A stretch of DNA of 64,000 nt from a candidate division WOR-3 bacterium UBA5631. Its GTDB lineage: Bacteria > Hydrothermota > Hydrothermia > UBA1063. Of this stretch, positions 12,558 to 60,277 are shown in pieces (position 1 is the first letter of the stretch; the number at the start of each line of letters is the position of its first letter). The notes below the pieces were generated by a model. The model was not told where the DNA came from. It worked only from the letters and a program-made list of their open reading frames with translations, and searched no databases. Location: the NCBI GenBank assembly GCA_002421425.1, contig DIJZ01000020.1, positions 825 to 64,824 on the forward strand, given 5' to 3'. A program made the position numbers and the translations under genes.

Positions 12558-12568
12558 CTTGTCCTCCT

Positions 12569-17003: not shown

Positions 17004-17625
17004 AATCACCACCTCCTTTACATAGACTTCGTATATAATATAAATTACGATTTTTAGCCCGTCAAGATCCAATATGTGTGACAGAAAGATTATTCACTTC
17101 AGAAGACAAAACACAGCAGGTGTAGTTCAAACGGTTAATCTAAGGTTTTTAGTTCTACCGAGCCAAAGCTGCAAAACAATCCATAAAGTTAATTTAATAG
17201 CAGAACATCGCTCTTCCCGTCCTTCTTCTATTTCGTTCAATTTTCTAAATTTAATGCTTCAAAAAAGCACTTTCAACCCTCCCTAAGGCACTTTTTGACC
17301 AGGCAAACTTACGCGGCGAATGCGACACAGCAATTCCAAAAATTTTAAGCCAACACACTTGACTGCTGAAGAGTATGAATTGGTTTCTGTATTTGAAACA
17401 GAAGAAAAACCCCGTACGAAAAATCTTAAAGACCTCTCGAATATCCATACAATCGACATAATCGGTTCTCAAACTCTAAAATCTTTATTCGATGCATTAC
17501 AGCAAATGCGAATAATCTGGCTTTTATGCCAAGTTTTCGGTATAATAAACACACATTGAAAGAAGCGAGATGAAGGGGCTTTTAGGAAGTGCTGAAGAAA
17601 GCCTCCTAAAATCAAAAGAGAGACC

Positions 17626-18180: not shown

Positions 18181-18237
18181 GTGTCGGAAGGTACAGGGTA
18201 ATTTTTATAAAAACGAACCTTTTAAGGTATAATATCT

Positions 18238-20413: not shown

Positions 20414-20422
20414 GAGGGTATT

Positions 20423-30500: not shown

Positions 30501-31150
30501 GCATCTTTATCACCAAGCTTTTGAATTACACCTCGGGAGAAGGTTGAGTCAATCTCAACCTTATTTGTAGCGGAAGAGATCACCGTACTCCAGTTTTGGG
30601 TCCCTACCTGACGCCTTTCTATTGTAATATTATTTGTCTGTCCTGCAGTTCCCCATACATAAAATTCGTACTGATAATCAATTCCCCCCACTCTGAAAGT
30701 TGCATATTTTGTCCAATTACCTCTGGATTCACACTCAATCGTATGAGCAAAACCGCGAACACTTCTGGCCAAAGCTTTACCGCCAACTAAAACCTTCTTG
30801 AGAACGCTCATTCTGGACATTATCGCCCAGTTCAGTACGTTTCCTGGCCAATAGTTATAATAATCTGCAGGTTGATTTACAGGCTCCCAACCGTTGGAAT
30901 ACCGATAAACGGCGTTCGGATCAAAATATCCATAGTAACTCCGAGATGGATCGTAATTATCATATGTGTTTGCAGACCAGTTCCAGTAGGCAGGATCCCC
31001 CATGGAACCGGAATTATCCATTATTACAAAGATATTGGGATTTACTTTCTGGGCTAAAAAGGGTGGAATGTTGCAGGGCATTCCAGCCTCCTGAGCCCAT
31101 AGCCACGACATTCCTAACAATATAATTAACAGAATTTTTTTGTTTAACAT
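27572..31150 (-). CDS. pilY1: PilY1-like type IV pilus tip adhesin (N-terminal vWA plus C-terminal PilC/PilY1 beta-propeller)
   Basis: 1192 aa. Signal peptide ...SWLWAQ. MIDAS IFVIMDNSGSMGD. C-terminal FFGSGKYFTDEDEADN propeller motif. Lies downstream of pilVWX-like genes. Confidence 0.7.
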   Translation of the reverse strand: MLNKKILLIILLGMSWLWAQEAGMPCNIPPFLAQKVNPNIFVIMDNSGSMGDPAYWNWSANTYDNYDPSRSYYGYFDPNAVYRYSNGWEPVNQPADYYNYWPGNVLNWAIMSRMSVLKKVLVGGKALARSVRGFAHTIECESRGNWTKYATFRVGGIDYQYEFYVWGTAGQTNNITIERRQVGTQNWSTVISSATNKVEIDSTFSRGVIQKLGDKDADGRWDDDAARFWLINFNNKGNGKEMNASGQEVSGLNDHDAGSVTSYYQDNSSMSDFVNAIQNTSPETWTPLAECLLETAGYFQQRAPYFDKTNYKTGKQWDPMDSTYWCRKSFVLLLTDGEATRDRDIKLQQYVGDYDGDGNEPSYIDGSIDPYNGHYLDDVALWMHTNDLRAGIAGTQELTLYGVYVFGRGHGLLREACKDGGFIDYNGNRRPDLDREWDQNGDGVPDTYYEAEDGWEVERAIMNAILDIMRRVGSATAVSVISQTQKGEGTMYQAFFQPSINTVFGELNWIGQLGAYFVDKYGNLREDTDGNAKLTDNDYIIKFKVEGNETKAERWYVENDTPIYKVDEKGIWELNFLWNAGTRLLNADPARRNIKAVVKSGSTFNLVDFTVSNRTVFSQYLQGSDAFKDSLIEYIRGVEYNNPEWRSRLYEPNKVWKLGDIVYSTPSFVGKPTERYDLIYDDVSYREFYNEKKDRRNIVLVGANDGMLHAFNAGVFDTAQRELRGLGKNLGEELWAVIPMNLLPHLKWLRDPRYCHVYYVDLKPKITDVKIFADDGDHPEGWGTVAIVGMRFGGTPITVGINTFKSSYFMLDISNPDNPRILWEFTDPDLGYTISYPSVLKVIEGGQEKWFVVFGSGTTSTPTGHSSDQNAYFYILDLATGQLLRKITIPYPSNQTVGAFCGNPVSVDVRLDYSCDVIYLPTTYFETQGNTVNEKGALYRIVTGNKINPNDWQLSMAVRLDRPLTSGSAVSMDEYGNLWVFFGSGKYFTDEDEADNLNHYFIGFRDNYWNGGYTSQTSPSHSLSDFLNATAIRVKADTASGNVTVENIPGMGNLSYAAFVDSVNRKYKGWYIQLAAGEKSLNFPLVLGGAVFFTTYKVVDDPCGFGGQGWLYVLFYKTGTAASNAPLGLNLQQYAITKIQVEGMPASPAVQIGSRQEATAFVQTATGEIVQIQTELPFSPKSGARIWRPANF

Positions 31151-31169
31151 TTTGCACCCCTTTCCTAAT

Positions 31170-31619
31170 TTATTGTGCTATTACACCAATAACCCTTCTA
31201 TATAGGACTTCAAGTTCAATTCTATCCTCAGGTCCAGCCTGGGCCCGAGAAAGAATCCCGTAGAATATCGCGGCACCGCCTCCACCCACTCCTCTACCCA
31301 ATCCTTCATAAGCTGCTGCAAATTCTAGAGAACCTCCCTTCTCCGTTACCACAAAAAGCCTTTGAGGAGTTGCCACTACGTTTCTTCCCCCGATCTCCCG
31401 ATTTATCGCATCCATTTGTCTCCCCTCATTCTCTGCAGCCCAGATCTCACTTACCGCCAGTTCAACCCCTCCCTCAGCAGCTTCGAAAGTAGTTAAAGCA
31501 CGTCTTGAAATTCCGGTTATCTTCATGCCTCTCTGCACCAGAACCGCTGTAATACCAGCTATAACTACAATAAATGCAGTCACAAGTATTACCGTAATTA
31601 AAGCAATTCCCTTTCTCAT
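31170..31619 (-). CDS. pilX: PilX-like minor pilin
   Basis: MRKG|IALITVILVTAFIVVIAGI, a prepilin-like hydrophobic N-terminus lacking E5 (as in PilX). ATGA overlap with the upstream gene. Confidence 0.5.
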   Translation of the reverse strand: MRKGIALITVILVTAFIVVIAGITAVLVQRGMKITGISRRALTTFEAAEGGVELAVSEIWAAENEGRQMDAINREIGGRNVVATPQRLFVVTEKGGSLEFAAAYEGLGRGVGGGGAAIFYGILSRAQAGPEDRIELEVLYRRVIGVIAQ

Positions 31620-32518
31620 CGCACATTCCTCACTTTTACGTCTATGGAATAAAATCTTCTCCGCCTCATCTTTGCTTCTGTTCCGAGATTGTAGGTATGG
31701 TCCTCAACTGTGATCTGGTCTTGGGGGAACGTATATTCTCTGTCTATGTTTCCAACAAGAACGATATTGGGCCTTACGGTCTTTAGTAAGGAATTGAAAT
31801 CTGCAATCCCCTGAGGATTCCATAGCCTTTCACCCGTGTTCTCTACACCATTCCTGTTAAAATCTACCCAGTACGCCAGCTGAAAGTCCTCAACCCCCGT
31901 TAGAAAAGGTTCATTGTTCCTGAATAATGTGTCATTTCGAAGCCAATAGATTACCTGCGCTACCTGTCCGCCAGGAACTGTATATACGAAGTTTCCTGCA
32001 GCAGTCTGGACATTTTGCGAAAGAGAAAGCCTGTAGGCTGGCAGGGTATTGTAGGTGAGAACCTCTCTATCTGTCACACGAACGGGCTGGGTAACTATAA
32101 GGTTCTTTTTATCGTCCATAACAATAACATAGTCATCCTTATGGATATCTACCCTGTCGTCACCCCACCTTCTCACAATAATCTCATTAGCGGCAAAGAT
32201 ATCAAGGGTATAACTCCACCTTGTGGTTCCACCAACCACGAAGCCGGTGCTTCTAAGTATCAAAGAGTCTGGAGCATTGCTTTTGTTAATTCCGGCAACC
32301 GGGTTTACCGACGCCGGGACTCCATATCCAGCCATCAGAATATCCCACTTCATAATGTTAAAGGCCTGCTGAATGTCGGTTTGAAGCATCGAGATGCTCT
32401 GCTGTGTAGATGCAGTTCGGATCTGAGAACGGTATACCACAAAAACACCCGTGAGCAAAACACTCAGGATACCTAATGCTACAATTATTTCAATTAGTGT
32501 AACTCCCCTTCTCTTCAT
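31616..32518 (-). CDS. pilW: PilW-like minor pilin
   Basis: MKRRG|VTLIEIIVALGILSVLL, a class III signal with E5. 300 aa. Confidence 0.6.
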   Translation of the reverse strand: MKRRGVTLIEIIVALGILSVLLTGVFVVYRSQIRTASTQQSISMLQTDIQQAFNIMKWDILMAGYGVPASVNPVAGINKSNAPDSLILRSTGFVVGGTTRWSYTLDIFAANEIIVRRWGDDRVDIHKDDYVIVMDDKKNLIVTQPVRVTDREVLTYNTLPAYRLSLSQNVQTAAGNFVYTVPGGQVAQVIYWLRNDTLFRNNEPFLTGVEDFQLAYWVDFNRNGVENTGERLWNPQGIADFNSLLKTVRPNIVLVGNIDREYTFPQDQITVEDHTYNLGTEAKMRRRRFYSIDVKVRNVR

Positions 32519-32563
32519 GAGTTAAGAACTCCTTTTGCAGTGTAGCGCATATTTCAGGATCCC

Positions 32564-32983
32564 CTACATCTCATACTGGCTCCTTACCGTTGTAACTCTG
32601 TATTCCCTTTGAATTCCGGTCCTCGCATCAAGCCATCGGATTATTGTTCTGATAGTGCGAGTTCCATCTGCATTTTCTGCAATATTCCACATTGTCGTGA
32701 AAGCGATGTTATCAAGAGTATCAACCACGGAATGGTCTGGGTTGTCAACATCATCAAGATCATTGTTATCTCCGTCATTAGCAAGTTCAGGAGCATCAAA
32801 AGATACTCCCTTCAGAGCTTCAGAATGGCGCTCTGCCAGAAACCGGGCATTTAACATCTGATTCTGGAGATTGTTGAGCCTTATCGTAGCAATGGCCAGA
32901 GGAATCACGCCCATAAGTCCAATTGTGAGTATAGTAAGTGCCACCAATACTTCGATCAATGTGTAACCTTTACTTTTCTTCAT
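32564..32983 (-). CDS. pilV: PilV-like minor pilin
   Basis: MKKSKG|YTLIEVLVALTILTIGLMGV. The internal Met is the preferred start; the ORF track extends to 33028. Confidence 0.6.
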   Translation of the reverse strand: MKKSKGYTLIEVLVALTILTIGLMGVIPLAIATIRLNNLQNQMLNARFLAERHSEALKGVSFDAPELANDGDNNDLDDVDNPDHSVVDTLDNIAFTTMWNIAENADGTRTIRTIIRWLDARTGIQREYRVTTVRSQYEM

Positions 32984-33512
32984 GCCATGCTCCCCTCCAG
33001 GAGTATACCCTGACCTGTCCAAAGGCATTTACTCCGATACACATCAGATTCCTGTTATCGTTGATGTAAATTTCACCCGGCGTCTCACAGAGGCCGAAAA
33101 CGGAAAATACCACCATGTTGTTTTCAGACCCCGTGCCAAACATAATCCCATCGGAGTCAATAGTACCTCCACCTAAACTAGTAGCAGAACCCAATCCGCC
33201 AAGATTCACCCTAGGACTAAAATAATTAGGATAACTGGCGAGGGTAGAATCAAGATTTGGCAAAGGCTTGTTCTGGTCCTCTATTCTAATTGTCACATTT
33301 TTACCATTAAAAATCAACGCTCGCCTGTTGCTGGCAGACATAGCTGTGGTTCTCTCTGTCTCAAGAAGGGCTTTGACCTTGAAGGCCTCATTTCGTAGCC
33401 TGTTTCTTGCAACCCACCGGTTACCTCCCCAGAAGGGAATCGCAATAACGACACTCATAATAAAGATCACAAGCAATATCTCAATGAGAGTCATGCCCTT
33501 CTTGAGCTTCAT
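32970..33512 (-). CDS. fimT: FimT/FimU/GspH-like minor pilin
   Basis: MKLKKG|MTLIEILLVIFIMSVVIAI; 180 aa. Confidence 0.6.
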   Translation of the reverse strand: MKLKKGMTLIEILLVIFIMSVVIAIPFWGGNRWVARNRLRNEAFKVKALLETERTTAMSASNRRALIFNGKNVTIRIEDQNKPLPNLDSTLASYPNYFSPRVNLGGLGSATSLGGGTIDSDGIMFGTGSENNMVVFSVFGLCETPGEIYINDNRNLMCIGVNAFGQVRVYSWRGAWHEEK

Positions 33513-33523: not shown

Positions 33524-34720
33524 TTATTCTCTCACAACACTTGGTGTGAGGAATATCAAAATCTCTGACTTGCTCTTATCTACTTGATCTCTACCGAACA
33601 GATATCTGATAATAGGGATCCGCAGAATCAGCGGTAATCCTGACTTTGCTCTTTTGTCCTTGTCAACGATAACTCCACCTATCATGACTGTTTCGCCGTC
33701 GGAGATGGTAACTTTTGTCTCAGCCCCTCTTTTTGATGTAATAGGCTGACCTGCAGCTGAGTATCCAGTTAGATCGCCTGTCTCGGTCTTGATAGCCATA
33801 ACTACTTTTCCATCCGGGATTATATGTGGGGTGACTTCCAGAAGAACACCCGTCTCTTCAAACTGGACAATGGTGTTTCCAGCCATATCCCTTGATATTA
33901 CCGGAACCCTAATTTTTGAGTAGATGGATGCCTTTTCATTATCAAGTACCATAATCTTCGGTTCTGATATGGTATTTGCTTTGCTCTGCCCCTCAAGAGC
34001 TTCAATGGCTGCAGCAACTCTGTGCACATTCGTTCCGATGTATGCAACGGTAAGGAAATTTGGATTTTCGGGTGCATAATCATCAAGATTGACCGTCTGC
34101 CTATTTACATTCAACTGAGCACCCGGGTTACCACCATAGGTCAATCCAAACTGCGTACCAAGTTTTCTTGATTCATTGTAATCAACTTCGACAATTTTCC
34201 CCTGTATTAGAACCTGGGGATAAGGTTTATCTACCTGACTCAAAAGGTCTTCAATCTTGTAAATGTTGACTCTCAAATCGGTTACAATAAGGGCATTGGA
34301 AGATTCGTCTACCTTTATGTCACCTCTTGGAGAAAGTTGTGACTTCAGGACTTCAGCAACTCTGCGTGCGTCGGCATACCTCACCTTCAAAACCTTGATA
34401 TCCAGATCTGCGGCGGTTTTCAGCTGACCGAACTCCGATTGAGTCATAATGGTAATAACCCCCTCACTCTCTATCATTGCAAGACCATACGCATCGAGTA
34501 GAGATTTAAGTGCTAGCCTCCACGGAACATCCTTGATATTGAAAGTAACCTTCTGCGTAACGGAGGGGGTAGTAATTATATTAACTCTCCCGACTTCTGC
34601 AAAAGCTCTTAAAACAGTCTTTATATCCGCCTGCTCAACGCTCATAGTAATTCTGGCTTCCTGCGCGTAGACCAGCGACACAGCCATCAGTAAAAACACA
34701 AATTTTTTAAATAACTTCAT
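33524..34720 (-). CDS. pilQ: Type IV pilus secretin PilQ (short form, no AMIN domains)
   Basis: Signal ...SLVYAQ. Secretin C-domain ...VMIGGVIVDKDKRAKSGLPLILRIPIIRYLFGRDQVDKSKSEILIFLTPSVV. Confidence 0.8.
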   Translation of the reverse strand: MKLFKKFVFLLMAVSLVYAQEARITMSVEQADIKTVLRAFAEVGRVNIITTPSVTQKVTFNIKDVPWRLALKSLLDAYGLAMIESEGVITIMTQSEFGQLKTAADLDIKVLKVRYADARRVAEVLKSQLSPRGDIKVDESSNALIVTDLRVNIYKIEDLLSQVDKPYPQVLIQGKIVEVDYNESRKLGTQFGLTYGGNPGAQLNVNRQTVNLDDYAPENPNFLTVAYIGTNVHRVAAAIEALEGQSKANTISEPKIMVLDNEKASIYSKIRVPVISRDMAGNTIVQFEETGVLLEVTPHIIPDGKVVMAIKTETGDLTGYSAAGQPITSKRGAETKVTISDGETVMIGGVIVDKDKRAKSGLPLILRIPIIRYLFGRDQVDKSKSEILIFLTPSVVRE

Positions 34721-34734: not shown

Positions 34735-35520
34735 TTATTTTTTCTCTTCTGCTAATTTTAGTTCAATCCTTCTTGTGAATCCAAAATCTACAGTGGCAAA
34801 AATTACACGGTCGGACTCAATTTTCACAACCCGACCGTTTCTAACCCTATCCCCTTCTTTGAGTACGTAACCTACTCCCCTCCGATCCTGCAGCAGGGCA
34901 ACGTCTCCCTCTTCACTTCTAATCACACCAAGGAGTTTTGCCTCACTAACGTTCAAAAGTTCCTCTTCTCCTTCCATAGCTTCGGGCCGGAAAGGATCTT
35001 TTTTACCTCTTGACGAGTAGAAATACTTTTCTCCCAGTTCCAGTTTGTAAGCCTCTGCTTTGGGTTTCTCGGAAGGTTTCGCAGGCTCAGTATAAGTTTT
35101 CTGAGGTTCTTGCGTCTCCGTTCTATACGGTTCCTGGGTAACGCCTCCTACGAGAATCGTCAGCTTCCCCTCAGACTGTGCAACGGTGTAGGTCCGAAAG
35201 CCATCTACATCGAGGACAACTCTAGCCACAGGCACCGGGTCTCTTTGAAACTGTGCTCCTCTCATACGCTCAATGCCGCCTCTACCAACTACAAAGAGCT
35301 TCTCGCCGAGACCATAAGATACATTTATAAGGTCAATGACAATCCTGGGAGGGTTGGAAAGAGTAAAATGTTTGTATTCAGGGATACCCCCTGTGAATTG
35401 AAGCTCAACAAGAATACCTTCAGGTGTCTCCTTTATCGAATATGCACTGAGAGTATTTTGAGCCTGCAGAACTCCAGCAGAAAAGACAAAAAACGCTATA
35501 AAAGATAGTATTCTCTTCAT
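34735..35520 (-). CDS. pilP: AMIN-domain plus PilP-like pilotin/alignment protein
   Basis: Signal ...GVLQAQ. N-terminal half carries AMIN-like motifs (PPRIVIDLINV; ARVVLDVDGF). C-terminal ...EGDRVRNGRVVKIESDRVIFA resembles the PilP beta-domain. Confidence 0.5.
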   Translation of the reverse strand: MKRILSFIAFFVFSAGVLQAQNTLSAYSIKETPEGILVELQFTGGIPEYKHFTLSNPPRIVIDLINVSYGLGEKLFVVGRGGIERMRGAQFQRDPVPVARVVLDVDGFRTYTVAQSEGKLTILVGGVTQEPYRTETQEPQKTYTEPAKPSEKPKAEAYKLELGEKYFYSSRGKKDPFRPEAMEGEEELLNVSEAKLLGVIRSEEGDVALLQDRRGVGYVLKEGDRVRNGRVVKIESDRVIFATVDFGFTRRIELKLAEEKK

Positions 35521-36101
35521 TTCTTAGCACCTCCGCTAACACCGGCCGCAGGGTTGTATATGTAGCAAATCACTGTAAGTCTACCTCTCACGGTCTGCTG
35601 ACTTTCCTTGTCAGAACCAGAAAGTCGTTCAATCTGCAAATTTTCCACACTCATTATTCTCTCGGAGTTAGCAATAAAACTTATGAAGGTCCCGAGTTCA
35701 TGAAAACCACCCTGTACATCCATACTTACAGGATATTCCACGTACAACTCTTTTGGCCTTGCTGCCTGGGGTTTGAATCCCGTAATCTGAACTCCAGAAG
35801 TTATTGCCATACCCGTTATCTGAGCAAGCCACTCCTCCATTTTCTCTTCCTGTGGAAGGTATTTCTGAGTTTCCTGCCACAGAGCAAGGAGGGAATCTTT
35901 TTCCCTGATTATCCGGTCATAATCTTTGACATAATCCCTTAGATTCTGTACTTTTGTATATTGAGTTTTATACTGGCTCTCAACTTTCTTCAGTTCCCTG
36001 GATTTTGAAGCATAAACTGAATTCCAGAGAAAAAGAAAGGTGAGAACATAAACTATAACAGCTAACAACCATATTACTATCGGCGATTTAAGTTTCTCCA
36101 T
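35517..36101 (-). CDS. pilO: Type IV pilus assembly protein PilO
   Basis: N-terminal TM, coiled coil, then a ferredoxin-like C-domain. ATGA overlap with pilP. Confidence 0.65.
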   Translation of the reverse strand: MEKLKSPIVIWLLAVIVYVLTFLFLWNSVYASKSRELKKVESQYKTQYTKVQNLRDYVKDYDRIIREKDSLLALWQETQKYLPQEEKMEEWLAQITGMAITSGVQITGFKPQAARPKELYVEYPVSMDVQGGFHELGTFISFIANSERIMSVENLQIERLSGSDKESQQTVRGRLTVICYIYNPAAGVSGGAKK

Positions 36102-36109: not shown

Positions 36110-36556
36110 CTAATCAGTTTGGCGCTTAAGGTAAATTGTTGGAAGATTAGCATCTTTCCCCGGTGTGAGAGTATATCCAGTAATTTCTCCGTATCCCGGA
36201 CCCAGAACATTATCAAAATAGAATGCCTGAATTTTGACACCAATGTTTGATACCGGAGGGAATCCCTCGTAACCTGTTGTTGGATAAACGACAAAAGAAT
36301 AATCGCCAGTAGAATTGGTAGTAGTTTCAAGGACTGGACCCGTATATGGGTAGTCAGTAGATGGATCTCCTACAAGATAAAGTCTTGCGCCCACAGCCGG
36401 TGTCTCCACAAAGGTCGTTTCATTATGAACCGTATCTATGTACGCAATGATATAAGCAACCTTACCATTTAATGTCACGGACTTGTCGACATAATCACAA
36501 GACGAAAATAAAATAGCAACCACTACTGCAATACCAAGATATAAATACTTCTTCAT
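36110..36556 (-). CDS. Lipoprotein with carboxypeptidase-regulatory-like/transthyretin-like beta-sandwich, inserted between pilN and pilO
   Basis: Lipobox ...LFSSC. LNGKVAYI...STGDYSF pattern typical of CarboxypepD_reg folds. Confidence 0.45.
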   Translation of the reverse strand: MKKYLYLGIAVVVAILFSSCDYVDKSVTLNGKVAYIIAYIDTVHNETTFVETPAVGARLYLVGDPSTDYPYTGPVLETTTNSTGDYSFVVYPTTGYEGFPPVSNIGVKIQAFYFDNVLGPGYGEITGYTLTPGKDANLPTIYLKRQTD

Positions 36557-36570: not shown

Positions 36571-38187
36571 TTATTTCAGTTTTACATTTAACTCAAAACT
36601 TGCGTACCGCTCCTCCTGACTCCCTGCAACTTCAATAGACAGGAGGCTCACTGAATCTACAATTGCTGATTTCTTGAGATTTGTCATAAATTGTGAAATT
36701 CTCATGTTAGAAAGGGCCGCACCGGAAATATTAAGATAATCCCCGCTTCTCTTCAAAGAAGAAAGCCAGCATCCTGAAGGTAGCACCCTGTTAACCTCAT
36801 CAAGAAGTTGTACGTACCTTGTCCGGCCAATTTGAAGTTCTTTTATCAAATCAATTTTTCTTCTTGCGTCTTCGATCTCTCTTTTGAACCCACTAATTTC
36901 ATCAGCCTTCTTCTGAAGTTCCACCTCTTCAGCCTGAAGAGCCACAATTTGCTTCTTCAGTCCTGAAATTCTTCTTGAAGTGCCTATCGTAAGTCCCAGA
37001 ATTCCAATAACGATGAGTAACCATATAAACAGAGCTCCGACTACATGCGGGAGTATTGAGACCTCTTCTACAGCACCCACCGCTTCCATGCCACCTTCTT
37101 GTGGTATAAGGTTTATCCTGTGTTCTTTTCTGTAAAAGTGCAAAACATCCCCGAGGACTATTGGAAGTAGATGAATATTCTCCTTGAGTCCTTTGACTGG
37201 CTCTTCAACCGCAAACAGAGTCCCGAGATCCAGGAACTTTAGGTCTACTCCGTATTTGTTCTTAACAAAGGTACCAACACCGTAGAGCTGGCTTCCTCCT
37301 CCAGAAAGATAGAAATTGAATTTTGCACCAGCCTCTCCAAGGACAGGAACGAACTTCTCCGGGGAAAGGAACCGGTCGTGTAGGGACTCCATAGTCTCTT
37401 CGAAGGAACTCTTTTCGATATTAGCAGTCGGACCATTTATAGCAACCTCTTCAGCTTCTTCTACCCTGAGATCATAGAACCTCGATAGGTTATCGACATA
37501 GGATTTTATTCCCGAGGGAACTTCGAGCATCTGTTGGATTTGTCCATCTTTAATATGGATCAACAGTGCAACTTCGTACCCCATATGGAAGAACACATTA
37601 TCACCGGGTATGTTCTTAAGCCCAAGAGCTTCTATCACCCTGTACAGAGAGACAAGATCCGTAGTAACCATTACGGGTTCCAGTCCAGAAGCTCTCACGA
37701 TGTCCATTATATCGTAAATAAGGCTTAATTTTGCCGTCCCAACAAGAATATCCACTGACTCGGCAATCTGGCTCATGCCAAGTATTTCATAATCCCTGAC
37801 AATTTCCGTCGGATCAACGTGCAACTCTTCTTTTATCTTCCAGTCCACTGCTTCAGCAAGCTTCTCTTTCTTCTTATAGTAGGGAATCACCATCGCTTTA
37901 GACTTTACCTCTCCGCCGGCAACATTTACAATAACATTCGATACATCGGTACCCATTTTGGCAAAAGCATCCCTGATTTTATCTATTAAGACTTGCCTGT
38001 CAATTATGTCCTTCCCGAGAATGACATCAGGAGGAATTTTTTCCATGGAGAAAGCCCTCAAGATGATTTCTTTCTTGACTTTCTCAAAAAGAGCTAATTT
38101 TATGTACTTTGACCCTATATCTAACACAATCACGGGTCCTCTGGCTTTCCCCTTTAAGCCTTTCGTTACATTACCGATAAAAGCCAT
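36571..38187 (-). CDS. pilMN: PilM-PilN fusion protein (actin-like ATPase-fold PilM, then TM plus PilN periplasmic domain)
   Basis: VIVLDIGSKYIKLALFE (PilM) at the N-terminus. INLIPQEGG, TM ALFIWLLIVIGILGL and a C-terminal PilN-like domain. Confidence 0.75.
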   Translation of the reverse strand: MAFIGNVTKGLKGKARGPVIVLDIGSKYIKLALFEKVKKEIILRAFSMEKIPPDVILGKDIIDRQVLIDKIRDAFAKMGTDVSNVIVNVAGGEVKSKAMVIPYYKKKEKLAEAVDWKIKEELHVDPTEIVRDYEILGMSQIAESVDILVGTAKLSLIYDIMDIVRASGLEPVMVTTDLVSLYRVIEALGLKNIPGDNVFFHMGYEVALLIHIKDGQIQQMLEVPSGIKSYVDNLSRFYDLRVEEAEEVAINGPTANIEKSSFEETMESLHDRFLSPEKFVPVLGEAGAKFNFYLSGGGSQLYGVGTFVKNKYGVDLKFLDLGTLFAVEEPVKGLKENIHLLPIVLGDVLHFYRKEHRINLIPQEGGMEAVGAVEEVSILPHVVGALFIWLLIVIGILGLTIGTSRRISGLKKQIVALQAEEVELQKKADEISGFKREIEDARRKIDLIKELQIGRTRYVQLLDEVNRVLPSGCWLSSLKRSGDYLNISGAALSNMRISQFMTNLKKSAIVDSVSLLSIEVAGSQEERYASFELNVKLK

Positions 38188-38201: not shown

Positions 38202-39449
38202 TTATTTGCTTTCCTCAACGAAAGCATTCAAAACCTTGTTTAATAAAACTTCATCGATCTTTTCCCCTAACCTCTTGTACGTCAAAAGCTCTCTAACCAC
38301 TGTCTCAATCTTTTTCAGATTCAACCCCGGCCTTTTAACTATTTGATCAATTATGCTCACCGGAAGCCCTTCTTCACCCATAAAGTTCTTAACAACTTCT
38401 CTTTTGAGTTCCACTGTAGGCTCCTCAATCCCTATGCCCATAAATCCATTTAGTAACGACTTTATTTTCTTACTGAGAGTAGGCATATCTTTTAAAGGCT
38501 GGGCGGAAGTAATAACCACCTGTTTATCCTGCGAAACAAGTTCAGAAAGAACTGTAAAGAGGGCTTCCTGAGCGAAGTCTTTTCCAACCAGAAAATCAAG
38601 ATCATCAAAAAGAAGAAGGTCAGTGTCGCTCAACATGCCAAGGTACCTCTCCAGCTCCCTTTCAGTCTTAAGCCCTTTCAAAGTCGTTACAAACTTAAAG
38701 GCATCAATGTATATAAAACGCCTTAGCGCTTCATTCTCAAGAATATAGTTGGCAATGGACTGCAAAAGATGTGTTTTGCCCGTTCCATCATGTCCGTAAA
38801 TGAAAACCCTTCTTTCTGCTACCCCTCTGGTCTCTGCAAGGTCTTTACACAATAGAAAAGCATGCCGATTAGATTCACCGGTAACATAATTCTCAAAGAC
38901 TTTATCCTTCGCTATTAGAACTCCAATTTCTCTTCTCACTCTCTCCACACCAAACGGTTCCTGGATTCTCTCCTCTCCTCCTGCTTCGACGTAATATTTT
39001 TCGATGGCTTCCCGGATTTCGCTGATGGTTGAGATAAATGGCCTTATCTTCAAATCAGTTACGTTCTTTATCTCAGCAAGCATTTCTTTGTTAACAGGGT
39101 TTGCCATGGCAACGGCGAGAGACTTGCCCTTCTTTCTTATTGGAATCAAAAGATACTTTCTTGCAACTCTTCCTGGGATATGCTCAACTGCTTCGGGGTC
39201 TATATCAATATCCTTGAGCCTTACATAGTGAAGCATTGGAAAACTATCAAGAATGAACTTTACAAGTTGCTCCTCGTTTAGAAATCCCTTTTCCACTAAA
39301 ATCTCTTCAAGGGTCCCTCCCCTTTCCCATTGCTCAGTAAGGGCTGTTTTTATAGCTTCCTTAGTTATAACTCCGCTCTTTTCCAGCAAATCTATAAAGG
39401 TAACCTTAGTACCGGTTTTCTCATCAGCTTTCACATCTTTCCTTATCAT
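38202..39449 (-). CDS. Fusion of a T2SSE_N/MshEN-like N-terminal domain with a DnaA/Hda-type AAA+ module (no DnaA domains I, II or IV)
   Basis: Residues ~15-150 resemble the GspE/PilB N1 domain with two MshEN-like 24-mer halves (TFIDLLEKSGVITKEAIKTALTEQ and TLEEILVEKGFLNEEQLVKFILDSF). The C-terminal module shows DnaA domain III traits. These are ENYVTGESNRHAF, Walker A GHDGTGKTHLL, Walker B LLLFDDLDFL, sensor-1 VVITSAQ, and box VII/sensor-2 ...NLKKIETVVREL. Confidence 0.7.
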   Translation of the reverse strand: MIRKDVKADEKTGTKVTFIDLLEKSGVITKEAIKTALTEQWERGGTLEEILVEKGFLNEEQLVKFILDSFPMLHYVRLKDIDIDPEAVEHIPGRVARKYLLIPIRKKGKSLAVAMANPVNKEMLAEIKNVTDLKIRPFISTISEIREAIEKYYVEAGGEERIQEPFGVERVRREIGVLIAKDKVFENYVTGESNRHAFLLCKDLAETRGVAERRVFIYGHDGTGKTHLLQSIANYILENEALRRFIYIDAFKFVTTLKGLKTERELERYLGMLSDTDLLLFDDLDFLVGKDFAQEALFTVLSELVSQDKQVVITSAQPLKDMPTLSKKIKSLLNGFMGIGIEEPTVELKREVVKNFMGEEGLPVSIIDQIVKRPGLNLKKIETVVRELLTYKRLGEKIDEVLLNKVLNAFVEESK

Positions 39450-41200
39450 TGTACACTACTCCTTAAAGATTTAACCTTTTCCGCCACACTCTTAAAATTT
39501 GAATCAAAGACGTAAACCCTGGTATACAACTCCTTTGCCTCCAGAAACCTTTTCATGCTTTCAAGGGTCTGGGCAAGATAATAATACGCTTCAAGGTAAT
39601 CCTTCTCCATATATCCTACCTCCTCAACAGCCTTTCTCAGTATAACCTCAGCAAATTCTAAATCACCCCTTTCATAGAAGATCTTCCCAAGGAGTATCAT
39701 AGCCTGAAGCCGAAACCTCGGATCATTAAGCAGCTTCTGAAGTTCCTCCACCGCCGCCTGATAAAGCTTCATCTCATAGTACTCCTTCGCCACGTCAAAA
39801 GCAGGATCCTGAGGATATGGCCATTCTTCGAAAGTGAGGATGTCTTCCTTCAACTCTCTAAGTACTTTAAGTAAATACTCAAAATGTTCCCTGTCGGGTA
39901 TTCTCTCAACCCTCTCATAAATGGGTTGTTCCTCCTTCTTGCCTTCTTCTGTCTCTACCTCAGGTGGTCTCTTCTGGGTGGTTTTTGTGACAGGTTCGGA
40001 CTTTATTTCCATCACTTCCTGAGGGATCTTTAACTCCTCTCGCTTTTCTGTTACTTTACGCTTCTCTGTTTCTTTCTTCTCAGTAATCTTCAAAAATTCC
40101 TCAAAAGATTTCCTTAAAACTTCGGGGTTCTCTTCCGACTTCAAAACCTCCTCCAGAGCAGGGGGCTTCTCTTCGGTGATAATTTCCTCTTCCTTTTTCG
40201 GAACTTCTTCAGGAACAACTTTCTCCCACAGCTTTTGCTCTTCCTCAACTTCTTCAGGGACCTCCTCCTCCACTACAGTCTTGAATCCTTCCGCTGGAGG
40301 TGCCTCCTTCGCAATAACAGGCTCTTCAACTACTTGTGTTTTTTCAGATACTTCCTCAACGGGCATTGCCTCCTGCGGAGGCGGTGTCTCTACAACTTCA
40401 GGTTGCTGCAACGGGACTTCCTCAGAAGGCTTCTCAACCCCGAGGAAATCTGCAAAACCAGATGATGTGATAAAGGTTTCTGGTTCTTCCTCTTCTTTTT
40501 CCACGAATTCAACCTTTTCGACTTCTTGCTCCTCTTCTCTCTTTTTTGCAGCCTTCTTTTCCACTTCAGAAGTTCCACCGTGTTCCTCGGGTCCAAAAAA
40601 ACCACCATATGAACCAAAATCACCCTTTTCAAAGAACTCCTGAGGTTCTGCAAATTCTATGCCCCCATCCAGACTCATTATAGAAAGGGACTCTGCCAGC
40701 TCCTGTAGTCGAACAAATAACCTCTCAAACTTTGCGGCTTGCTCGGTGTTCTCCTGAATCGCATTCGCAAATTCATTTATTAATCTTAGCAGTTTACCAA
40801 CATATGTCGGGTCAATAGTCGGCAGCTTAATAAGTTCCAGTGCCCAGTCCAGTGCCTTATCGACATTCCCGTTCTCCAGTTCCATTTCTACGAGGTCAAG
40901 ATACGTATCATATTTTTCTTTATCGAGTCTAATTATCTTCTTTGCAATGGAGATAGCGATTTCTCTGAAGTCCTGTTCCTTATACATTCTGTAAGCTTTT
41001 TCTAAGTTTTCCAGCGCAAGTTCGTGGTTCTGCTTCCGAATATAAAGGTCTCCGATAGAGTTGAATACTTCGGGATCCGCTGTAACTTTTGCCAAATCTT
41101 TGAGAACCTGCAAAGCTTCATCGTACTTGCCCTGACCAATTAGTTTTTGAGCCTGCAGTTTTAGTTTTTTAACGTCAGAACCACCACTCTTAAATATCAT
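39446..41200 (-). CDS. TPR-repeat protein with central polyacidic E/P/V-rich low-complexity region
   Basis: TPR-like helices at both ends. Residues ~200-420 are rich in EEV/PEE repeats. ATGA coupling to the downstream MshEN-DnaA gene. Confidence 0.6.
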   Translation of the reverse strand: MIFKSGGSDVKKLKLQAQKLIGQGKYDEALQVLKDLAKVTADPEVFNSIGDLYIRKQNHELALENLEKAYRMYKEQDFREIAISIAKKIIRLDKEKYDTYLDLVEMELENGNVDKALDWALELIKLPTIDPTYVGKLLRLINEFANAIQENTEQAAKFERLFVRLQELAESLSIMSLDGGIEFAEPQEFFEKGDFGSYGGFFGPEEHGGTSEVEKKAAKKREEEQEVEKVEFVEKEEEEPETFITSSGFADFLGVEKPSEEVPLQQPEVVETPPPQEAMPVEEVSEKTQVVEEPVIAKEAPPAEGFKTVVEEEVPEEVEEEQKLWEKVVPEEVPKKEEEIITEEKPPALEEVLKSEENPEVLRKSFEEFLKITEKKETEKRKVTEKREELKIPQEVMEIKSEPVTKTTQKRPPEVETEEGKKEEQPIYERVERIPDREHFEYLLKVLRELKEDILTFEEWPYPQDPAFDVAKEYYEMKLYQAAVEELQKLLNDPRFRLQAMILLGKIFYERGDLEFAEVILRKAVEEVGYMEKDYLEAYYYLAQTLESMKRFLEAKELYTRVYVFDSNFKSVAEKVKSLRSSVQ

Positions 41201-41205
41201 AATGT

Positions 41206-43068
41206 TTAATTATACTCAAAATGCTTGTCAGTGTCAAGAAGTAATTCAAACAATCTCCTGAGAAAACAAAAAAAGGCGGGGAATCTATCGCTGAAAACTG
41301 CTACATCTGAAACCAATAAGGAAAGACCAGAGGGAATGAACTTTTCAAAATATTTCTTTCCTTTAACCCTTGATAGATATCCGTATGCACCCAGAGCCTG
41401 CATGTGCCTCTGAATCCTCGTAAAGTTCAACTCTTTATATAAGTCCTCAGAAGAAAGATCTATACCCGATAATTCGGAGCAGTTGAGTATATATGAATTT
41501 ATTGCATCCTCTCTAATCTTGCTGGATACATCTGTGTATGGGTCAAACAGCAGGGATGCCAGGTCATAACTTCTTGGACCCCATCTGAGCCCTATGAAGT
41601 CCGTTACGCCCAGCTCCCCGTTTTGTCTAACCATCAAGTTCTGGCTCTGAAAATCTCTATGGAGAACTACATGCGGAAATTTCGAACATTCCACTGCAAT
41701 AGAGTCAAGTTCCTCCATAACCTCTTCAGGAACTTCCAGGCGCCCGTAGGGAAGTACAAAATTATTGATAAAATGAGCCTGTTCCCAGCGGAAATATTCC
41801 ACGTCAAATACAAAACTGCCGAAATCTTTTGATAAAGAAATAGTGGGACCCAGGGAGTGAAGTTGCGCAAGGATACGTGCGGCCTTTCTGTAATAATCTG
41901 GTGCGTTTTTCTGATTCGGAGGATATTTTAAAAATGTATACAAAGTGATATCTCCGAAGTCTTCCATCCAGATCAGGTTTCTTAAAACATCCACGTCGAG
42001 TATTTCCGGCACAGGAACCCCACAAAAACGAAGAAATTCTGACGCCTTAAGGTGCTTATTGAAATTTTCAACATCATCACCGTAATCGCACAAAATTATT
42101 CTCTTTCTACCCTGGAGTACTCTGAAAAATTTTCTGTCTGACCCACCATGTCCAATGGAATATTTGTTCCCGTGGCCACCCATAGCCAGAACTTCATCAA
42201 AGGAAAGTTCTCCAGACGGTGATAGGATCATGTTCTCGTAGCGCCCCACTCGTAGGCTGCTTCCTGGTAAGATTATTGCATTTCTGAAAAACGCCCTGCC
42301 CTCAATACGACACTCCCCTTCCATTATTAGAAATCCATCAAACTTAATATCAGGAAACTCCGGCTTACGCAAGTTCTGGAACAGGTTCTCACCCCTCTTC
42401 TTCAGCAAATAAAACACTGTGCGGGCATAACCTTCCGGAGTACCGATGTCAGACCAGAATACATCCCCAATATCGTATACACTCACTTTAAGACCTCTAT
42501 TGAGGGCGTCAAGCCAGATGGTTTTTGCATCGAGGAATTCGACAGTGAATTTCTCAAAAACATCTTTTTTGTAAACTGCTATCCCCGCAAATCCAGTTAA
42601 GCCTGTGTGTTCGTCAATCCCGGTAAACCTTTCATCCGAAACTACGAGGTTCCTCTTAGGAACGTTCCTGCTCACTGCGAGAGTAATATTAGACTCCGTT
42701 CTTAAGAAGAATTCGATTATCTCTCTAAGATCAGTTTCACAGTACACGTCTCCATTATGAACAAGAATTACGTTACTTCTAAAAAGACTGGACATATTGA
42801 CCAGCGCACCTCCAGTCCCGAGAATTTCCCGTTCCTCAATAAAAGTTAACTCATTTCCAGTAGAACAAAGGTGTTCTCGAATTACATTACCCATATAATG
42901 GAGGTTAACCAGAACCTGAGTGGGATTCAACTCTTCAATTTTTGAGTGAATCTTTTCAAAACAGGTCTCTCCGAGGATGGGAAGTAGTACTTTTGGGATC
43001 GAATAAGTAATTGGTCTGAGTCTCTCTCCCAGCCCTGCAGAAAGAATCACGGCATCAAAATTAGTCAT
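41206..43068 (-). CDS. Bifunctional MurNAc-1-P uridylyltransferase / anomeric MurNAc(GlcNAc) kinase (MurU-AmgK fusion)
   Basis: N-terminus AVILSAGLGERLRPIT is sugar-nucleotidyltransferase GxGxRL. The C-terminal half is an APH-like kinase (VLHRDFQSQNLMV, DFIGL). The start is taken at the internal MTNFDAVIL Met (43066-68). Confidence 0.65.
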   Translation of the reverse strand: MTNFDAVILSAGLGERLRPITYSIPKVLLPILGETCFEKIHSKIEELNPTQVLVNLHYMGNVIREHLCSTGNELTFIEEREILGTGGALVNMSSLFRSNVILVHNGDVYCETDLREIIEFFLRTESNITLAVSRNVPKRNLVVSDERFTGIDEHTGLTGFAGIAVYKKDVFEKFTVEFLDAKTIWLDALNRGLKVSVYDIGDVFWSDIGTPEGYARTVFYLLKKRGENLFQNLRKPEFPDIKFDGFLIMEGECRIEGRAFFRNAIILPGSSLRVGRYENMILSPSGELSFDEVLAMGGHGNKYSIGHGGSDRKFFRVLQGRKRIILCDYGDDVENFNKHLKASEFLRFCGVPVPEILDVDVLRNLIWMEDFGDITLYTFLKYPPNQKNAPDYYRKAARILAQLHSLGPTISLSKDFGSFVFDVEYFRWEQAHFINNFVLPYGRLEVPEEVMEELDSIAVECSKFPHVVLHRDFQSQNLMVRQNGELGVTDFIGLRWGPRSYDLASLLFDPYTDVSSKIREDAINSYILNCSELSGIDLSSEDLYKELNFTRIQRHMQALGAYGYLSRVKGKKYFEKFIPSGLSLLVSDVAVFSDRFPAFFCFLRRLFELLLDTDKHFEYN

Positions 43069-44233
43069 AAAGCAGAAAATCCTTACGTATGTTTTCGTTG
43101 AAACTTTCGCTTTGGGCTTGCCACCAGGCTTCCATCTCGTCCAGCTTTTCACGCCTCTCAAGTTTCAGTCGCAACTCATCGGTTCCCACAAGGATATCGA
43201 AGGGAAGCTTCACGTACTCGTACTCATAAGGGGGCTGCTTCCAGCGAAACTCTTGAGGGTAAAGCTCCATCATCGCCTTTATCACGGCAACCCCAATTTT
43301 AAAGGGCTTCACTTTTTCTTTGCTTAAGATGTGAATCTGCACTCCACCACACTTTTCGCCAGCAAATTTATTGAAAGTTGGGATAAAATAAAGGGGGCGA
43401 AACGTTGTGCCATCAAGCCCAAGGGTACTGAGATAGTCTGCAAGAGAAAAAGGCTCTATAAATGGTGCACCAAAGATTTCAAAGGGTCTCGTAGTACCCC
43501 TTCCCTCACTGATATTCGTGGCCTCAAGAAGACACATACCTGGGTACAAAATTGCCGTCTTCTCTGAAGGCATATTGGGCGATGGATTCACCCAATCAAG
43601 CCCTGTATCCTGCCAGAAATGTCTTCTACTCCACCCCTCCATTTTTATTACTCTCAATTCTAAGTCAGAAAGGTATTTGTGCTTGAAATAAGATGCAATT
43701 TCGCCAATAGTCATTCCATGTCTAACAGGCAGCGGCTTAAGGCCAACAAAAGAGGCAAATTCTTCTTTCAAAACCGGACCTTCAACAAGAGAACCTGAAA
43801 TTGGGTTTGGACGGTCTAGCACTACAATAAATTTGCCGCATTCCATGGCAGCTTCCATGGTGAGGTATAAAGACCAGATATAAGTATAATATCTTGACCC
43901 AACGTCCTGAAGGTCGACCACCACTCCATCAACCTCCAGAAGGACTTCAAGGGGCGGCTTCCTTGCCTTCCCGTAAAGGCTGTACACAGGAATGCCCGTC
44001 CTGAGATCACGATAACCTTCCCACTCTATCATATTGTCTTGCGTTTCACCAAAGAGGCCGTGCTGGGGAGCGAAAACGGATTTAACACTAACTTTTTCAA
44101 ACCCCAAAAACGCATCCAGAGTGCTCTTCAGATTACCAAGGTAAGAGGCAGAGTGAATGAGGAGTGCAACTCTCACTCCCTCAAATTCCGAAGGCCATTC
44201 TTTTTGAAACAGGTCCACACCCAGTTTAGTCAC
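43061..44233 (-). CDS. namZ: DUF1343 family exo-beta-N-acetylmuramidase (NamZ-like)
   Basis: 390 aa; the call is based on family-level resemblance to DUF1343. 8 nt overlap with the upstream gene. Confidence 0.55.
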   Translation of the reverse strand: MTKLGVDLFQKEWPSEFEGVRVALLIHSASYLGNLKSTLDAFLGFEKVSVKSVFAPQHGLFGETQDNMIEWEGYRDLRTGIPVYSLYGKARKPPLEVLLEVDGVVVDLQDVGSRYYTYIWSLYLTMEAAMECGKFIVVLDRPNPISGSLVEGPVLKEEFASFVGLKPLPVRHGMTIGEIASYFKHKYLSDLELRVIKMEGWSRRHFWQDTGLDWVNPSPNMPSEKTAILYPGMCLLEATNISEGRGTTRPFEIFGAPFIEPFSLADYLSTLGLDGTTFRPLYFIPTFNKFAGEKCGGVQIHILSKEKVKPFKIGVAVIKAMMELYPQEFRWKQPPYEYEYVKLPFDILVGTDELRLKLERREKLDEMEAWWQAQSESFNENIRKDFLLYD

Positions 44234-60240: not shown

Positions 60241-60277
60241 TTCGGCCACACTATAATTAAAAACAAAGGAGACAGAA

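Follow-up and report, generated by a model that had tools for sequence, protein, structure and literature searches.

The pil operon of a candidate division WOR-3 bacterium (UBA5631) contains a gene whose product joins the N-terminal domain found in pilus motor ATPases to the AAA+ module of the replication initiator DnaA, which raises the question of whether the protein serves the chromosome or the pilus. The window analysed here is a stretch of 64,000 nucleotides from contig DIJZ01000020.1. The MshEN-DnaA(III) fusion is almost certainly an accessory factor of the pilus machine and no replication protein, and it is a member of a conserved, so far undescribed family. The genes and elements of the operon are as follows.

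41209..41237, minus strand: sigma-70 promoter TTGACA-17-TATAAT (12/12), with its end 8 nt upstream of where the TPR gene starts (ATG)
39446..41200, minus strand: cytoplasmic TPR - acidic linker - TPR protein (584 aa), a conserved partner whose gene shows translational coupling to that of the fusion
38202..39449, minus strand: MshEN-DnaA(III) fusion gene, 415 aa, stop codon at 38202-38204
36571..38187, minus strand: PilM-PilN fusion, 538 aa (Pfam PilM_2 at aa 22-331, PilN at aa 460-537)
36110..36556, minus strand: conserved 148-aa ORF between pilMN and pilO, with a lipoprotein-like N-terminus (...FSSC)
35517..36101, minus strand: PilO (Pfam PilO, 90.5 bits)
34735..35520, minus strand: AMIN-domain protein at the PilP position (Pfam AMIN, 37.5 bits; PilP match weak)
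33524..34720, minus strand: PilQ secretin (Pfam Secretin, 145.8 bits, with Secretin_N, STN and N0)
27572..33512, minus strand: minor pilins and PilY1, closing the cluster (N_methyl and T4P_PilY1 matches)
32970-33512, 32564-33028 and 31616-32518, minus strand: the minor pilins (N_methyl)
27572-31150, minus strand: PilY1 (T4P_PilY1)

The promoter is the only 12/12 sigma-70 match within 18 kb on both strands and is likely the start of the pil operon. The ATG of the fusion gene and the TGA of the TPR gene overlap in an ATGA that is preceded by AAGGAG, and 14 nt separate the fusion gene from the ATG of pilMN. Both the coupling and the spacing had been described in an earlier sequence-only reading of the window and are borne out, the downstream neighbour being PilM_2 plus PilN. 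Every related locus encodes PilM and PilN as one fused protein; in the window protein a cytoplasmic PilM is followed by one transmembrane segment (around aa 383-401) and a periplasmic PilN, a GspL-like topology. The 148-aa ORF has no match in Pfam or PHROG, and the minor pilin/PilY1 order recurs in related loci.

The fusion protein itself is made up of two modules, which are subdivided as follows.

39240..39401, minus strand: MshEN_N four-helix subdomain, aa 17-70 (NCBIfam NF053729 match at aa 20-66)
38979..39230, minus strand: MshEN_C alpha/beta subdomain, aa 74-157, PilB/GspE-type N1 with a putative PilM-docking surface
38919..38978, minus strand: disordered linker, aa 158-177 (pLDDT <50 at residues 155-175)
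38445..38918, minus strand: DnaA-type AAA+ base, aa 178-335, with Walker A, Walker B and the two-helix ISM
38205..38444, minus strand: AAA+ lid (DnaA domain IIIb), aa 336-415, with Lys at sensor-2, at the end of the protein and without domain IV

Both modules are recognised by profile searches and by structure. In Pfam, MshEN (PF05157; 66.7 bits, E 1.9e-18) covers aa 74-157, Bac_DnaA (PF00308; 117 bits, E 1.3e-33) covers aa 181-334, and an MshE-related c-di-GMP-motif model of NCBIfam scores 42.5 bits (cutoff 38) over aa 20-66. The sequence-only reading had claimed that a single ORF carries a T2SSE_N/MshEN domain and a DnaA domain III, and the significance of these matches upholds it. The AF2 model (pLDDT 79) consists of two modules joined by the disordered linker. 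The N-terminal module has the MshEN fold, a four-helix N subdomain (helices 18-25, 30-43, 47-53 and 59-69) and an alpha/beta C subdomain, and the latter is, by fold and sequence homology, a PilB-type N1. The C-terminal module folds as an AAA+ domain III and contains the initiator-specific motif, whose helices (250-259 and 263-274) are flanked by strands 245-249 and 278-282, and the protein matches domain III of B. subtilis DnaA with a TM of 0.87 in Foldseek. In the PDB, the sequence matches the N-domains of PilF/PilB as well as DnaA domain III. PilB and GspE models cover only the N-terminal 140-160 residues, the T2SSE ATPase core (PF00437) is absent from the fusion in Pfam, and the match to TIGR00362 (DnaA) runs from position 102 to position 340 of the 437-position model and takes in domain III only. 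The protein thus contains a full PilB/MshE-type N-terminal domain and a DnaA-derived domain III that includes the ISM and the lid, and no other module.

This composition bears directly on the annotation of the protein by JGI and UniRef as the replication initiator DnaA of the organism. The name 'chromosomal replication initiator protein DnaA' is carried by the family in the source databases, and the best-scoring NCBIfam model for the fusion is indeed DnaA, but its score of 153 bits lies well under the equivalog cutoff of 343.9, domains I/II and IV are lacking, the arginine finger is missing, and pilMN lies directly downstream in a pilus operon of fixed gene order. Bac_DnaA_C (PF08299) was found by Pfam neither in the fusion nor downstream of it nor elsewhere in the window, and phmmer with four domain IV queries returned nothing from the window or from 21 loci. 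The absence of domain IV from the protein had been noted from the sequence, and no cryptic copy, considered there as a possibility, lies downstream. Because the fusion has no DNA-binding domain, its identity as the initiator is refuted for practical purposes, and we regard it as virtually inconceivable. Canonical DnaA and canonical PilB were both absent from the WOR-3 loci in a search of the window and the 21 loci.

An Hda-like regulator, which would inactivate DnaA-ATP (RIDA) and tie replication initiation to the status of the envelope or pilus, had been offered as one of two functions for the fusion. As in Hda, the DnaA-type AAA+ domain of the protein comes with no domain for DNA binding, and NCBI names some members 'DnaA/Hda family protein'. 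A regular-expression search for the beta-clamp-binding motif (QL[SD]LF or QLxLxL) found none in 23 members, and the Hda model TIGR03420 scores 63.3 bits against a cutoff of 194.8, and the arginine finger is again absent, so that a link to RIDA is highly improbable and this half of the suggested function finds no support. The other half, a role in the pilus, is strongly supported by the gene order and by the conservation of the N1 subdomain described below. Assignment to the DnaC/IstB clade was also considered and rejected, the best match of the C-terminal half being DnaA, and there is no sign of phage origin, PHROGs giving only generic DnaC-like AAA+ matches.

The state of the AAA+ motifs was compared by aligning the fusion family with 20 canonical DnaAs. 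Walker A (GHDGTGKT) and Walker B (LLFDD) are both intact in the fusion and invariant in 38/38 close family members, and nucleotide binding is therefore under selection. The box VII arginine finger, equivalent to E. coli R285, is Leu in the fusion and L, F or I in all 38 family members, as against R in 20/20 DnaAs, and the equivalent of E. coli R281 is Lys. The sensor-1 Asp has become Ala (A, S or N across the family), and the sensor-2 Arg has become Lys. The AAA+ core had been taken from the sequence for complete, with sensor-1, box VII and sensor-2 all present, which these substitutions contradict. The position that contacts ssDNA (B. subtilis I190, E. coli V211) is hydrophobic in DnaA and is K, R, N, S or E in the family, with Lys in the window protein, while the B-motif Lys is present in 17/23 family members. 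Since Walker A and B are kept and the arginine finger is lost, ATP would be bound without hydrolysis in trans, and the DnaA-derived module of the WOR-3 clade is best read as an ATP-binding switch or scaffold and not as an active ATPase.

The c-di-GMP motifs of the protein are altered as well. Canonical c-di-GMP binding uses two 24-residue motifs, RLGxxhhxxGhhxxxxLxxxLxxQ, with a relaxed form [RKPN]hG... (Wang 2016). MshEN_N of the fusion carries two degenerate half-motifs, T-F-I in the first and T-L-E in the second, in which the final Gln is also replaced by Ser, and both halves miss the relaxed motif at positions 1 and 3; the Arg and Gly of both triads are substituted just as had been read from the sequence. 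Mutagenesis of PilF GSPII-A has shown that Ser at position 1 abolishes c-di-GMP binding and that Ala at position 3 lowers affinity 10-30-fold (PMC12002112). By this precedent, the substitutions in the fusion should abolish canonical c-di-GMP binding, and the caution about c-di-GMP already voiced from the sequence was right and is strengthened.

The fusion is far from unique. The two modules had been described as not normally found together, which needs qualifying, given that a large family carries both, with about 40 clusters in WOR-3/Hydrothermota and many more in Calditrichota/KSB1 MAGs. Among 18 independent loci examined, each with a single MshEN-DnaA(III) fusion of the 375-460 aa type, 17 share the order TPR, fusion, PilM-PilN fusion, PilO, AMIN/PilP-like, PilQ, the sole exception being L022. 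The survey of architecture and neighbourhood that had been proposed for this protein thus uncovered a conserved arrangement, which reaches down to 33% identity within WOR-3/Hydrothermota and extends to still more divergent members of Calditrichota type. By name these loci belong to WOR-3, Hydrothermota and Calditrichota, KSB1 has close homologues, and all carriers of the fusion are uncultured. Genes upstream of the TPR gene vary between clades, unlike the downstream order. The most conserved segment of the fusion is the PilB-type N1 alpha/beta subdomain, with 73-86% identity between clades compared with 41-56% for the AAA+ base.

Variants of the arrangement are also found. Another lineage has several MshEN/DnaA-III genes between prepilin peptidase and PilB, the fusion gene adjoins pilT in Calditrichota, and P0262 is a natural single-chain protein consisting of a TPR array and DnaA-III. 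In L020, L022 and L023, however, relatives that keep the motifs intact lie apart from any pil genes, and the module is therefore not intrinsically pilus-specific. No description of the family was found in the literature on MshEN/T2SSE_N with DnaA, on DnaA-like proteins or paralogues with pili, or on WOR-3 type IV pili, and the MshEN partner domains listed by Wang 2016 include neither DnaA nor AAA+.

The TPR partner has Pfam TPR matches at aa 16-75 and 496-563, separated by a middle region (aa 195-440) with 28% Glu and a net charge of -35, and no transmembrane segment was detected in it. TPR matches are in general promiscuous. The partner is orthologous at both ends to that of locus L019 (E 2e-13 each). 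The NCBIfam SgmX model (NF052243) matches 8/9 partner orthologues, with a best E of 8.8e-25 and all far under the 1800-bit cutoff, and the window TPR protein has no match to it at E <= 0.01. The direct target of SgmX is still not known (PMC9811614).

We propose that the fusion is a cytoplasmic type IV pilus accessory factor docked on PilM beside an SgmX-like TPR partner, with its AAA+ module serving as a nucleotide switch or scaffold, a proposal that we give an even chance of being correct in this form. The PilM socket is contested between the motors for extension and for retraction (PMC11656802). Docking on PilM is proposed because the N1 core is the best conserved part of the protein, because contact between the PilB N1D and PilM has been inferred in the field from GspE-GspL crystal structures (PMC11656802), and because the PilM-PilN fusion is GspL-like; by analogy with the binding of GspE/PilB N1 domains to GspL/PilM, the N1-like subdomain of the fusion would occupy this socket. 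The TPR partner, SgmX-like in most lineages, would bind the AAA+ module, a partnership favoured by the orthology of the partners, by their SgmX matches and by the single-chain P0262. In its ATP-bound form the AAA+ module may be a nucleotide-dependent switch or scaffold by which PilB/PilT are gated or recruited at the pilus base, and it would not work as an ATP-hydrolysing oligomer. Relatives with intact RLG and arginine finger probably represent an ancestral c-di-GMP-responsive form that oligomerises in an ATP-dependent manner, of which the window copy would be a derived, signal-independent and pseudo-enzyme-like version.

Within the pilus, the closest competitor to this proposal is a decoy or negative regulator, in which a free-standing N1 competes with PilB (or PilT) for PilM and blocks extension, the AAA+ module providing bulk or nucleotide-dependent release. 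The competition of motors for the socket and the existence of small inhibitor proteins of PilB (PMC11656802) are in keeping with such a role, as are the strong conservation of the N1-like subdomain, the decay of the enzymatic and signalling motifs and the position next to pilT in Calditrichota. A pure inhibitor is nevertheless unlikely to be kept as a translationally coupled core gene heading a structural operon across several phyla, and selection on nucleotide binding, seen in the invariant Walker motifs, also speaks against mere obstruction; we consider a decoy unlikely.

Two further roles are more remote. Thermophiles such as Thermus take up DNA by means of type IV pili, and a DnaA-III module at the pilus base could bind incoming ssDNA during natural transformation, given that DnaA domain III binds ssDNA as an ATP filament, that 3R8F is among the structural matches of the fusion and that the B-motif Lys is retained in most members; yet the hydrophobic ssDNA-contact position has been replaced by polar or charged residues, the arginine finger required for the ATP filament is missing and the operon has no com genes, which makes coupling to DNA uptake very unlikely. 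That the DnaA-type AAA+ has displaced the PilB ATPase and powers extension is suggested by the PilB N-terminal domain, by a location where pilB sits in some operons and by the failure to find pilB in the window or the WOR-3 loci. Only about 20 kb is seen per locus, though, and pilB may be encoded outside it; L021 has a canonical PilB together with family members, and loss of the arginine finger is incompatible with a processive motor. Initiator-clade AAA+ proteins, moreover, form open helical filaments and not closed translocating rings, and a replacement motor is accordingly hardly credible. A 'split PilB', in which PilB has lost its N1 domain to the fusion gene, is unsupported: in L017 and L018 the T2SSE genes next to the fusion gene encode PilT-family proteins of 397-398 aa (TIGR01420 428-438 bits, cutoff 319) and not truncated PilB, and L021 has a normal MshEN+T2SSE PilB.

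The accessory-factor proposal can be extended across the family. A DnaA-clade AAA+ module may have been exapted as a core cytoplasmic part of the type IV pilus in several FCB-related phyla, where, together with the SgmX-like TPR protein, it would be the missing adaptor that loads or gates PilB/PilT on PilM, ancestrally controlled by c-di-GMP and ATP-dependent oligomerisation and frozen in WOR-3 as a nucleotide-binding pseudo-enzyme. This full scenario is speculative and probably goes too far. To our knowledge, the other roles of DnaA-clade AAA+ proteins lie essentially in replication initiation, helicase loading and transposition. If the pilus reading is correct, this would be the first replication-initiator-type AAA+ module at work in a cell-envelope nanomachine. 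Type IV pili would gain a new class of cytoplasmic accessory factor, and there would be a concrete candidate for the means by which SgmX-like TPR activators come to the pilus base. Within the family, moreover, the arginine finger and the c-di-GMP motifs run from intact to decayed, a natural series in which the change from enzyme to scaffold can be studied. In metagenomic data, dozens of pilus-operon proteins go under the names 'chromosomal replication initiator DnaA', 'DnaC' or 'DnaA/Hda family', a systematic misannotation that can corrupt origin prediction and censuses of replication genes in WOR-3, Hydrothermota, Calditrichota and KSB1 MAGs.

Compared with known systems, the fusion resembles parts of several. 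Relative to DnaA domain III (T. maritima 2Z4R, B. subtilis 8BV3, A. aeolicus 1L8Q), it is without domains I, II and IV, differs at the finger (Leu), R281 (Lys), sensor-1 (Ala), sensor-2 (Lys) and ssDNA-contact (Lys) positions, and is encoded in a pilus operon. Hda of E. coli and HdaA of Caulobacter are the known domain-III-only paralogues of DnaA and share with the fusion a DnaA-type AAA+ module without a DNA-binding domain, whereas the fusion has neither the clamp-binding motif nor the arginine finger, is far less similar to Hda than to DnaA, and carries an extra PilB-type N-terminal domain in another genomic context. Among known MshEN/N1 proteins (M. xanthus PilB, T. thermophilus PilF GSPII-A, T2SS GspE/XpsE and V. 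cholerae MshE), this domain is followed by the N2/CTD T2SSE ATPase, which the fusion lacks, and its half-motifs, with Arg and Gly gone from both, are more degenerate than those of the experimentally non-binding PilF GSPII-A (PMC12002112). The PilB cofactors known so far include none with an AAA+ or DnaA-like module (PMC11656802). The SgmX system for the recruitment of PilB in M. xanthus is similar in that here too a cytoplasmic TPR protein is encoded alongside the pilus machine. The window differs from the SgmX, PilZ and FimX systems in showing no MglA, FrzS, PilZ or FimX component. What the fusion would share with SgmX and with the PilZ and FimX cofactors of PilB is their logic, in which access of the motor to the PilM socket is placed under the control of accessory proteins (PMC9811614, PMC11656802).

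The fusion gene (38202..39449, minus strand) encodes a 415-aa protein in which, as the sequence-only reading had proposed, two modules share one chain, matched in Pfam by MshEN (PF05157, aa 74-157, 66.7 bits) and Bac_DnaA (PF00308, aa 181-334, 117 bits). In NCBIfam, an MshE-related c-di-GMP-motif model covers aa 20-66 (42.5 bits against a cutoff of 38), and the DnaA equivalog, which scores 153 bits and so falls below its cutoff of 343.9, is aligned only over model positions 102-340 of 437, corresponding to domain III alone. A 23-sequence family alignment gave an AlphaFold2 model (mean pLDDT 79) in which a disordered linker (aa 155-175) lies between two folded modules. The C-terminal module, which matches B. 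subtilis 8BV3 with a TM score of 0.87 in Foldseek and carries the two-helix initiator-specific motif between β2 and β3, is a DnaA domain III.

The reported gene junctions were also confirmed: the ATG of the fusion and the stop codon TGA of the TPR gene before it overlap as ATGA, with AAGGAG located 8 nt upstream, and its stop codon is followed by a 14-nt spacer containing AAGGGGG and then the ATG of the PilM_2+PilN fusion. The presence of rpoB, rpoC, L1, L10, nusG and thyX identifies the 64-kb window as chromosomal, and no canonical DnaA, Bac_DnaA_C, PilB, PilT or PilC was found within it. Two window ORFs, at 50619-51944 (+, 441 aa) and 59302-60303 (−, 333 aa), have no Pfam match at E ≤ 1e-5.

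The AAA+ core had been described as complete, which did not survive alignment of the window protein with 20 canonical DnaAs and 38 family members: the arginine finger, the R281 equivalent, the sensor-1 Asp and the sensor-2 Arg are all substituted, and the core is thus incomplete.

AAA+ motif states in the window protein, its close family and canonical DnaA
Walker A Lys: window protein, kept; close family, invariant; canonical DnaA, kept
Walker B Asp-Asp: window protein, kept; close family, invariant; canonical DnaA, kept
Box VII arginine finger (E. coli R285): window protein, Leu; close family, L/F/I in 38/38; canonical DnaA, R in 20/20
R281 equivalent: window protein, Lys; close family, Lys; canonical DnaA, R in 17/20
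Sensor-1 Asp: window protein, Ala; close family, A/S/N; canonical DnaA, mostly Asp
Sensor-2 Arg: window protein, Lys; close family, K or R; canonical DnaA, Arg

Judged by its sequence, the window protein should still bind ATP. DnaA oligomers and Hda use a trans-acting residue, the arginine finger, which the window protein lacks, and at the hydrophobic position that contacts ssDNA (B. subtilis I190) family members have K/R/N/S/E. The finger is still present in the deepest WOR-3/Hydrothermota clade (L015, L016, P0136) and in the related proteins P0126, P0130, P0135, P0137, P0139, P0150 (with Ser at the R281-equivalent position) and P0193, which also keep TSDRP and N(I/V)RxLEG; in P0254, TSDRP and the sensor-2 Arg are retained but the finger position is occupied by His. 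The finger has been lost in the window's clade, in two sister clades and in the Calditrichota clade. The motif states across the family form a series, of which the window copy is the degenerate end.

The N-terminal c-di-GMP half-motifs are similarly altered. Both lack the Arg and Gly of the canonical RLG (T-F-I in half 1, T-L-E in half 2), the last residue of half 2 is Ser instead of Gln, Glu48 does not vary within the family, and both halves fail the relaxed motif of Wang et al. 2016 (PMC5013675). In PilF GSPII-A, the closest structural relative, Ser at position 1 abolished binding and Ala at position 3 reduced affinity 10-30-fold (PMC12002112). Given this precedent and the absence of Arg and Gly from both halves, canonical c-di-GMP binding is unlikely; the caveat originally attached to it was right and can be put more strongly. 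Some relatives retain the canonical RLG (P0193, P0254).

The two modules had been described as not normally occurring together, but the architecture is no singleton. A word-indexed search returned ~40 clusters at 90% identity with MshEN and Bac_DnaA, 40-99% identical to the window protein and named as candidate division WOR-3, Hydrothermota or Hydrothermia, and a GTDB species-genome scan found the fusion in 11 species, all of these lineages. When 1.84 billion cluster representatives were searched exhaustively with a profile, a further 20 clusters (50% identity) emerged that match full-length as a single stretch (375-556 aa), as well as longer forms: MshEN followed by two DnaA-III modules, MshEN with a long spacer and a C-terminal DnaA-III, proteins with DnaA-III in tandem, and DnaA-III joined to a TPR array. 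Further searching revealed a large additional clade in Calditrichota/KSB1-type MAGs. All carriers are uncultured, and source labels vary between ‘chromosomal replication initiator DnaA’, ‘DnaC’, ‘DnaA/Hda family’ and ‘hypothetical’.

Gene order is conserved in 17 of 18 independent loci examined, each encoding a single fusion of this type: TPR, fusion, PilM-PilN, usually a small ORF, PilO, AMIN/PilP-like and PilQ, followed by minor pilins and PilY1 where the contig extends far enough. Within WOR-3/Hydrothermota the order persists at identities as low as 33%, and it extends to Calditrichota-type members that are more divergent again. In these last, the genes are interspersed with pilT, a PatA_N protein, a receiver domain and a PAS histidine kinase; genes 5' of the TPR gene vary between clades. 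The elements flanking the window gene are as follows.

36571-38187 (−): PilM-PilN fusion, a single-TM protein of ~540-600 aa; also present in L001-L019 and L024
36110-36556 (−): conserved 148-aa ORF between pilMN and pilO, with a lipoprotein-like N-terminus (...FSSC)
41209-41237 (−): sigma-70 promoter TTGACA-17-TATAAT (12/12), ending 8 nt 5' of the TPR ATG

PilM and PilN are fused in every locus with an MshEN-DnaA(III) gene. The 148-aa ORF, without a match in Pfam and PHROG searches, occurs in nearly all related loci (28-65% identity). The promoter lies within the 3' end of an upstream AmgK/MurU-like gene; its position fits an operon starting with the TPR gene and implies a nearly leaderless first gene. 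Directly 5' is a peptidoglycan-recycling pair (41206-44233, −), a fused nucleotidyltransferase and aminoglycoside-phosphotransferase-fold protein (MurU/AmgK-like, 651 aa) adjoining the exo-muramidase NamZ, conserved only in the closest clade.

The exception to the order is L022 (P0254), where two MshEN-DnaA(III) paralogues lie side by side (6170-12583) near a DnaA-III-only gene and away from pil genes, which shows that members of this module family also occur outside pilus operons; P0254, the paralogue examined, has the canonical RLG. Other intact-motif relatives away from pil genes are in L020 and L023. Tandem DnaA-III proteins (~675-700 aa, without domain IV or MshEN) occur in Gemmatimonadota (L020 10001-12094, P0127), the L020 gene lying a few genes 3' of two bactofilin genes. 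In L021 (2681-16490), four consecutive genes between a prepilin peptidase and canonical PilB encode MshEN with two DnaA-III modules (921 aa), MshEN by itself (421 aa), DnaA-III by itself (246 aa) and a 1876-aa protein of MshEN, two DnaA-III modules and a long extension; the module family has expanded locally here. Locus L017 has, 3' of pilQ (15775-20951), a histidine kinase, a PatA-type receiver protein, a Roadblock/LC7 (MglB-like) protein and PilT, a polarity or taxis-type regulation set beside the same pil cluster. A 742-aa window protein (14844-17072, −) carries 11 LVIVD repeats and a type IX secretion C-terminal sorting domain; such tails also occur beside the pil clusters of L017, L018 and L024, consistent with FCB-group affiliation.

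The TPR partner is cytoplasmic, without a TM segment, and its N- and C-terminal TPR modules, both orthologous to their counterparts in divergent loci (against L019, E 2e-13 for each), flank a linker of 28% Glu and net charge −35. The NCBIfam SgmX model matches 8 of 9 partners (best E 8.8e-25); the window copy falls short of E ≤ 0.01. SgmX is a Myxococcus TPR activator without which PilB fails to reach the pole, and its direct target is unknown (PMC9811614). P0262 (L023 9879-13964, 1361 aa) joins a weak DnaG-type zinc ribbon, a long TPR array and a C-terminal DnaA-III in one chain, a Rosetta-stone hint that TPR partner and DnaA-III may act together.

Within the fusion, the N1-like α/β core is under the strongest constraint: its residues 84-138 are 73-86% identical between clades, compared with 41-56% for the AAA+ base and 23-39% for the lid. 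The accepted view is that PilB docks in a socket of PilM for which PilB and PilT compete, the PilB N1D-PilM contact having been inferred from GspE-N1/GspL crystal structures (PMC11656802). Together with the GspL-like PilM-PilN, this leads us to propose that the fusion docks on PilM via its N1-like subdomain and binds the TPR partner with its AAA+ module, and that it works as a switch or scaffold which binds ATP and either gates or recruits the motors. Architecture, synteny, conservation pattern and motif states are observed directly; docking, TPR contact, direction of regulation and nucleotide dependence we infer.

A close variant, in which the fusion is a decoy blocking the PilM socket, is a minority possibility. 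Handling of ssDNA during transformation is improbable. The Hda/RIDA-like role offered by the sequence-only reading is very doubtful, since clamp motif and arginine finger are absent and the module is nearer DnaA than Hda; it is equally hard to credit a DnaA-type replacement motor. Lacking domain IV, the protein can in practice be ruled out as a true DnaA.

The PilM-PilN fusion encoded next to it has a GspL-like topology; in classical T4aP systems PilM and PilN are separate. The literature searched yielded no description of the MshEN-DnaA(III) architecture or of a DnaA-like pilus cofactor. As an accessory factor for type IV pili based on the N-domain of PilB, the protein would be of a known type; the DnaA-clade AAA+ module within it is unprecedented.
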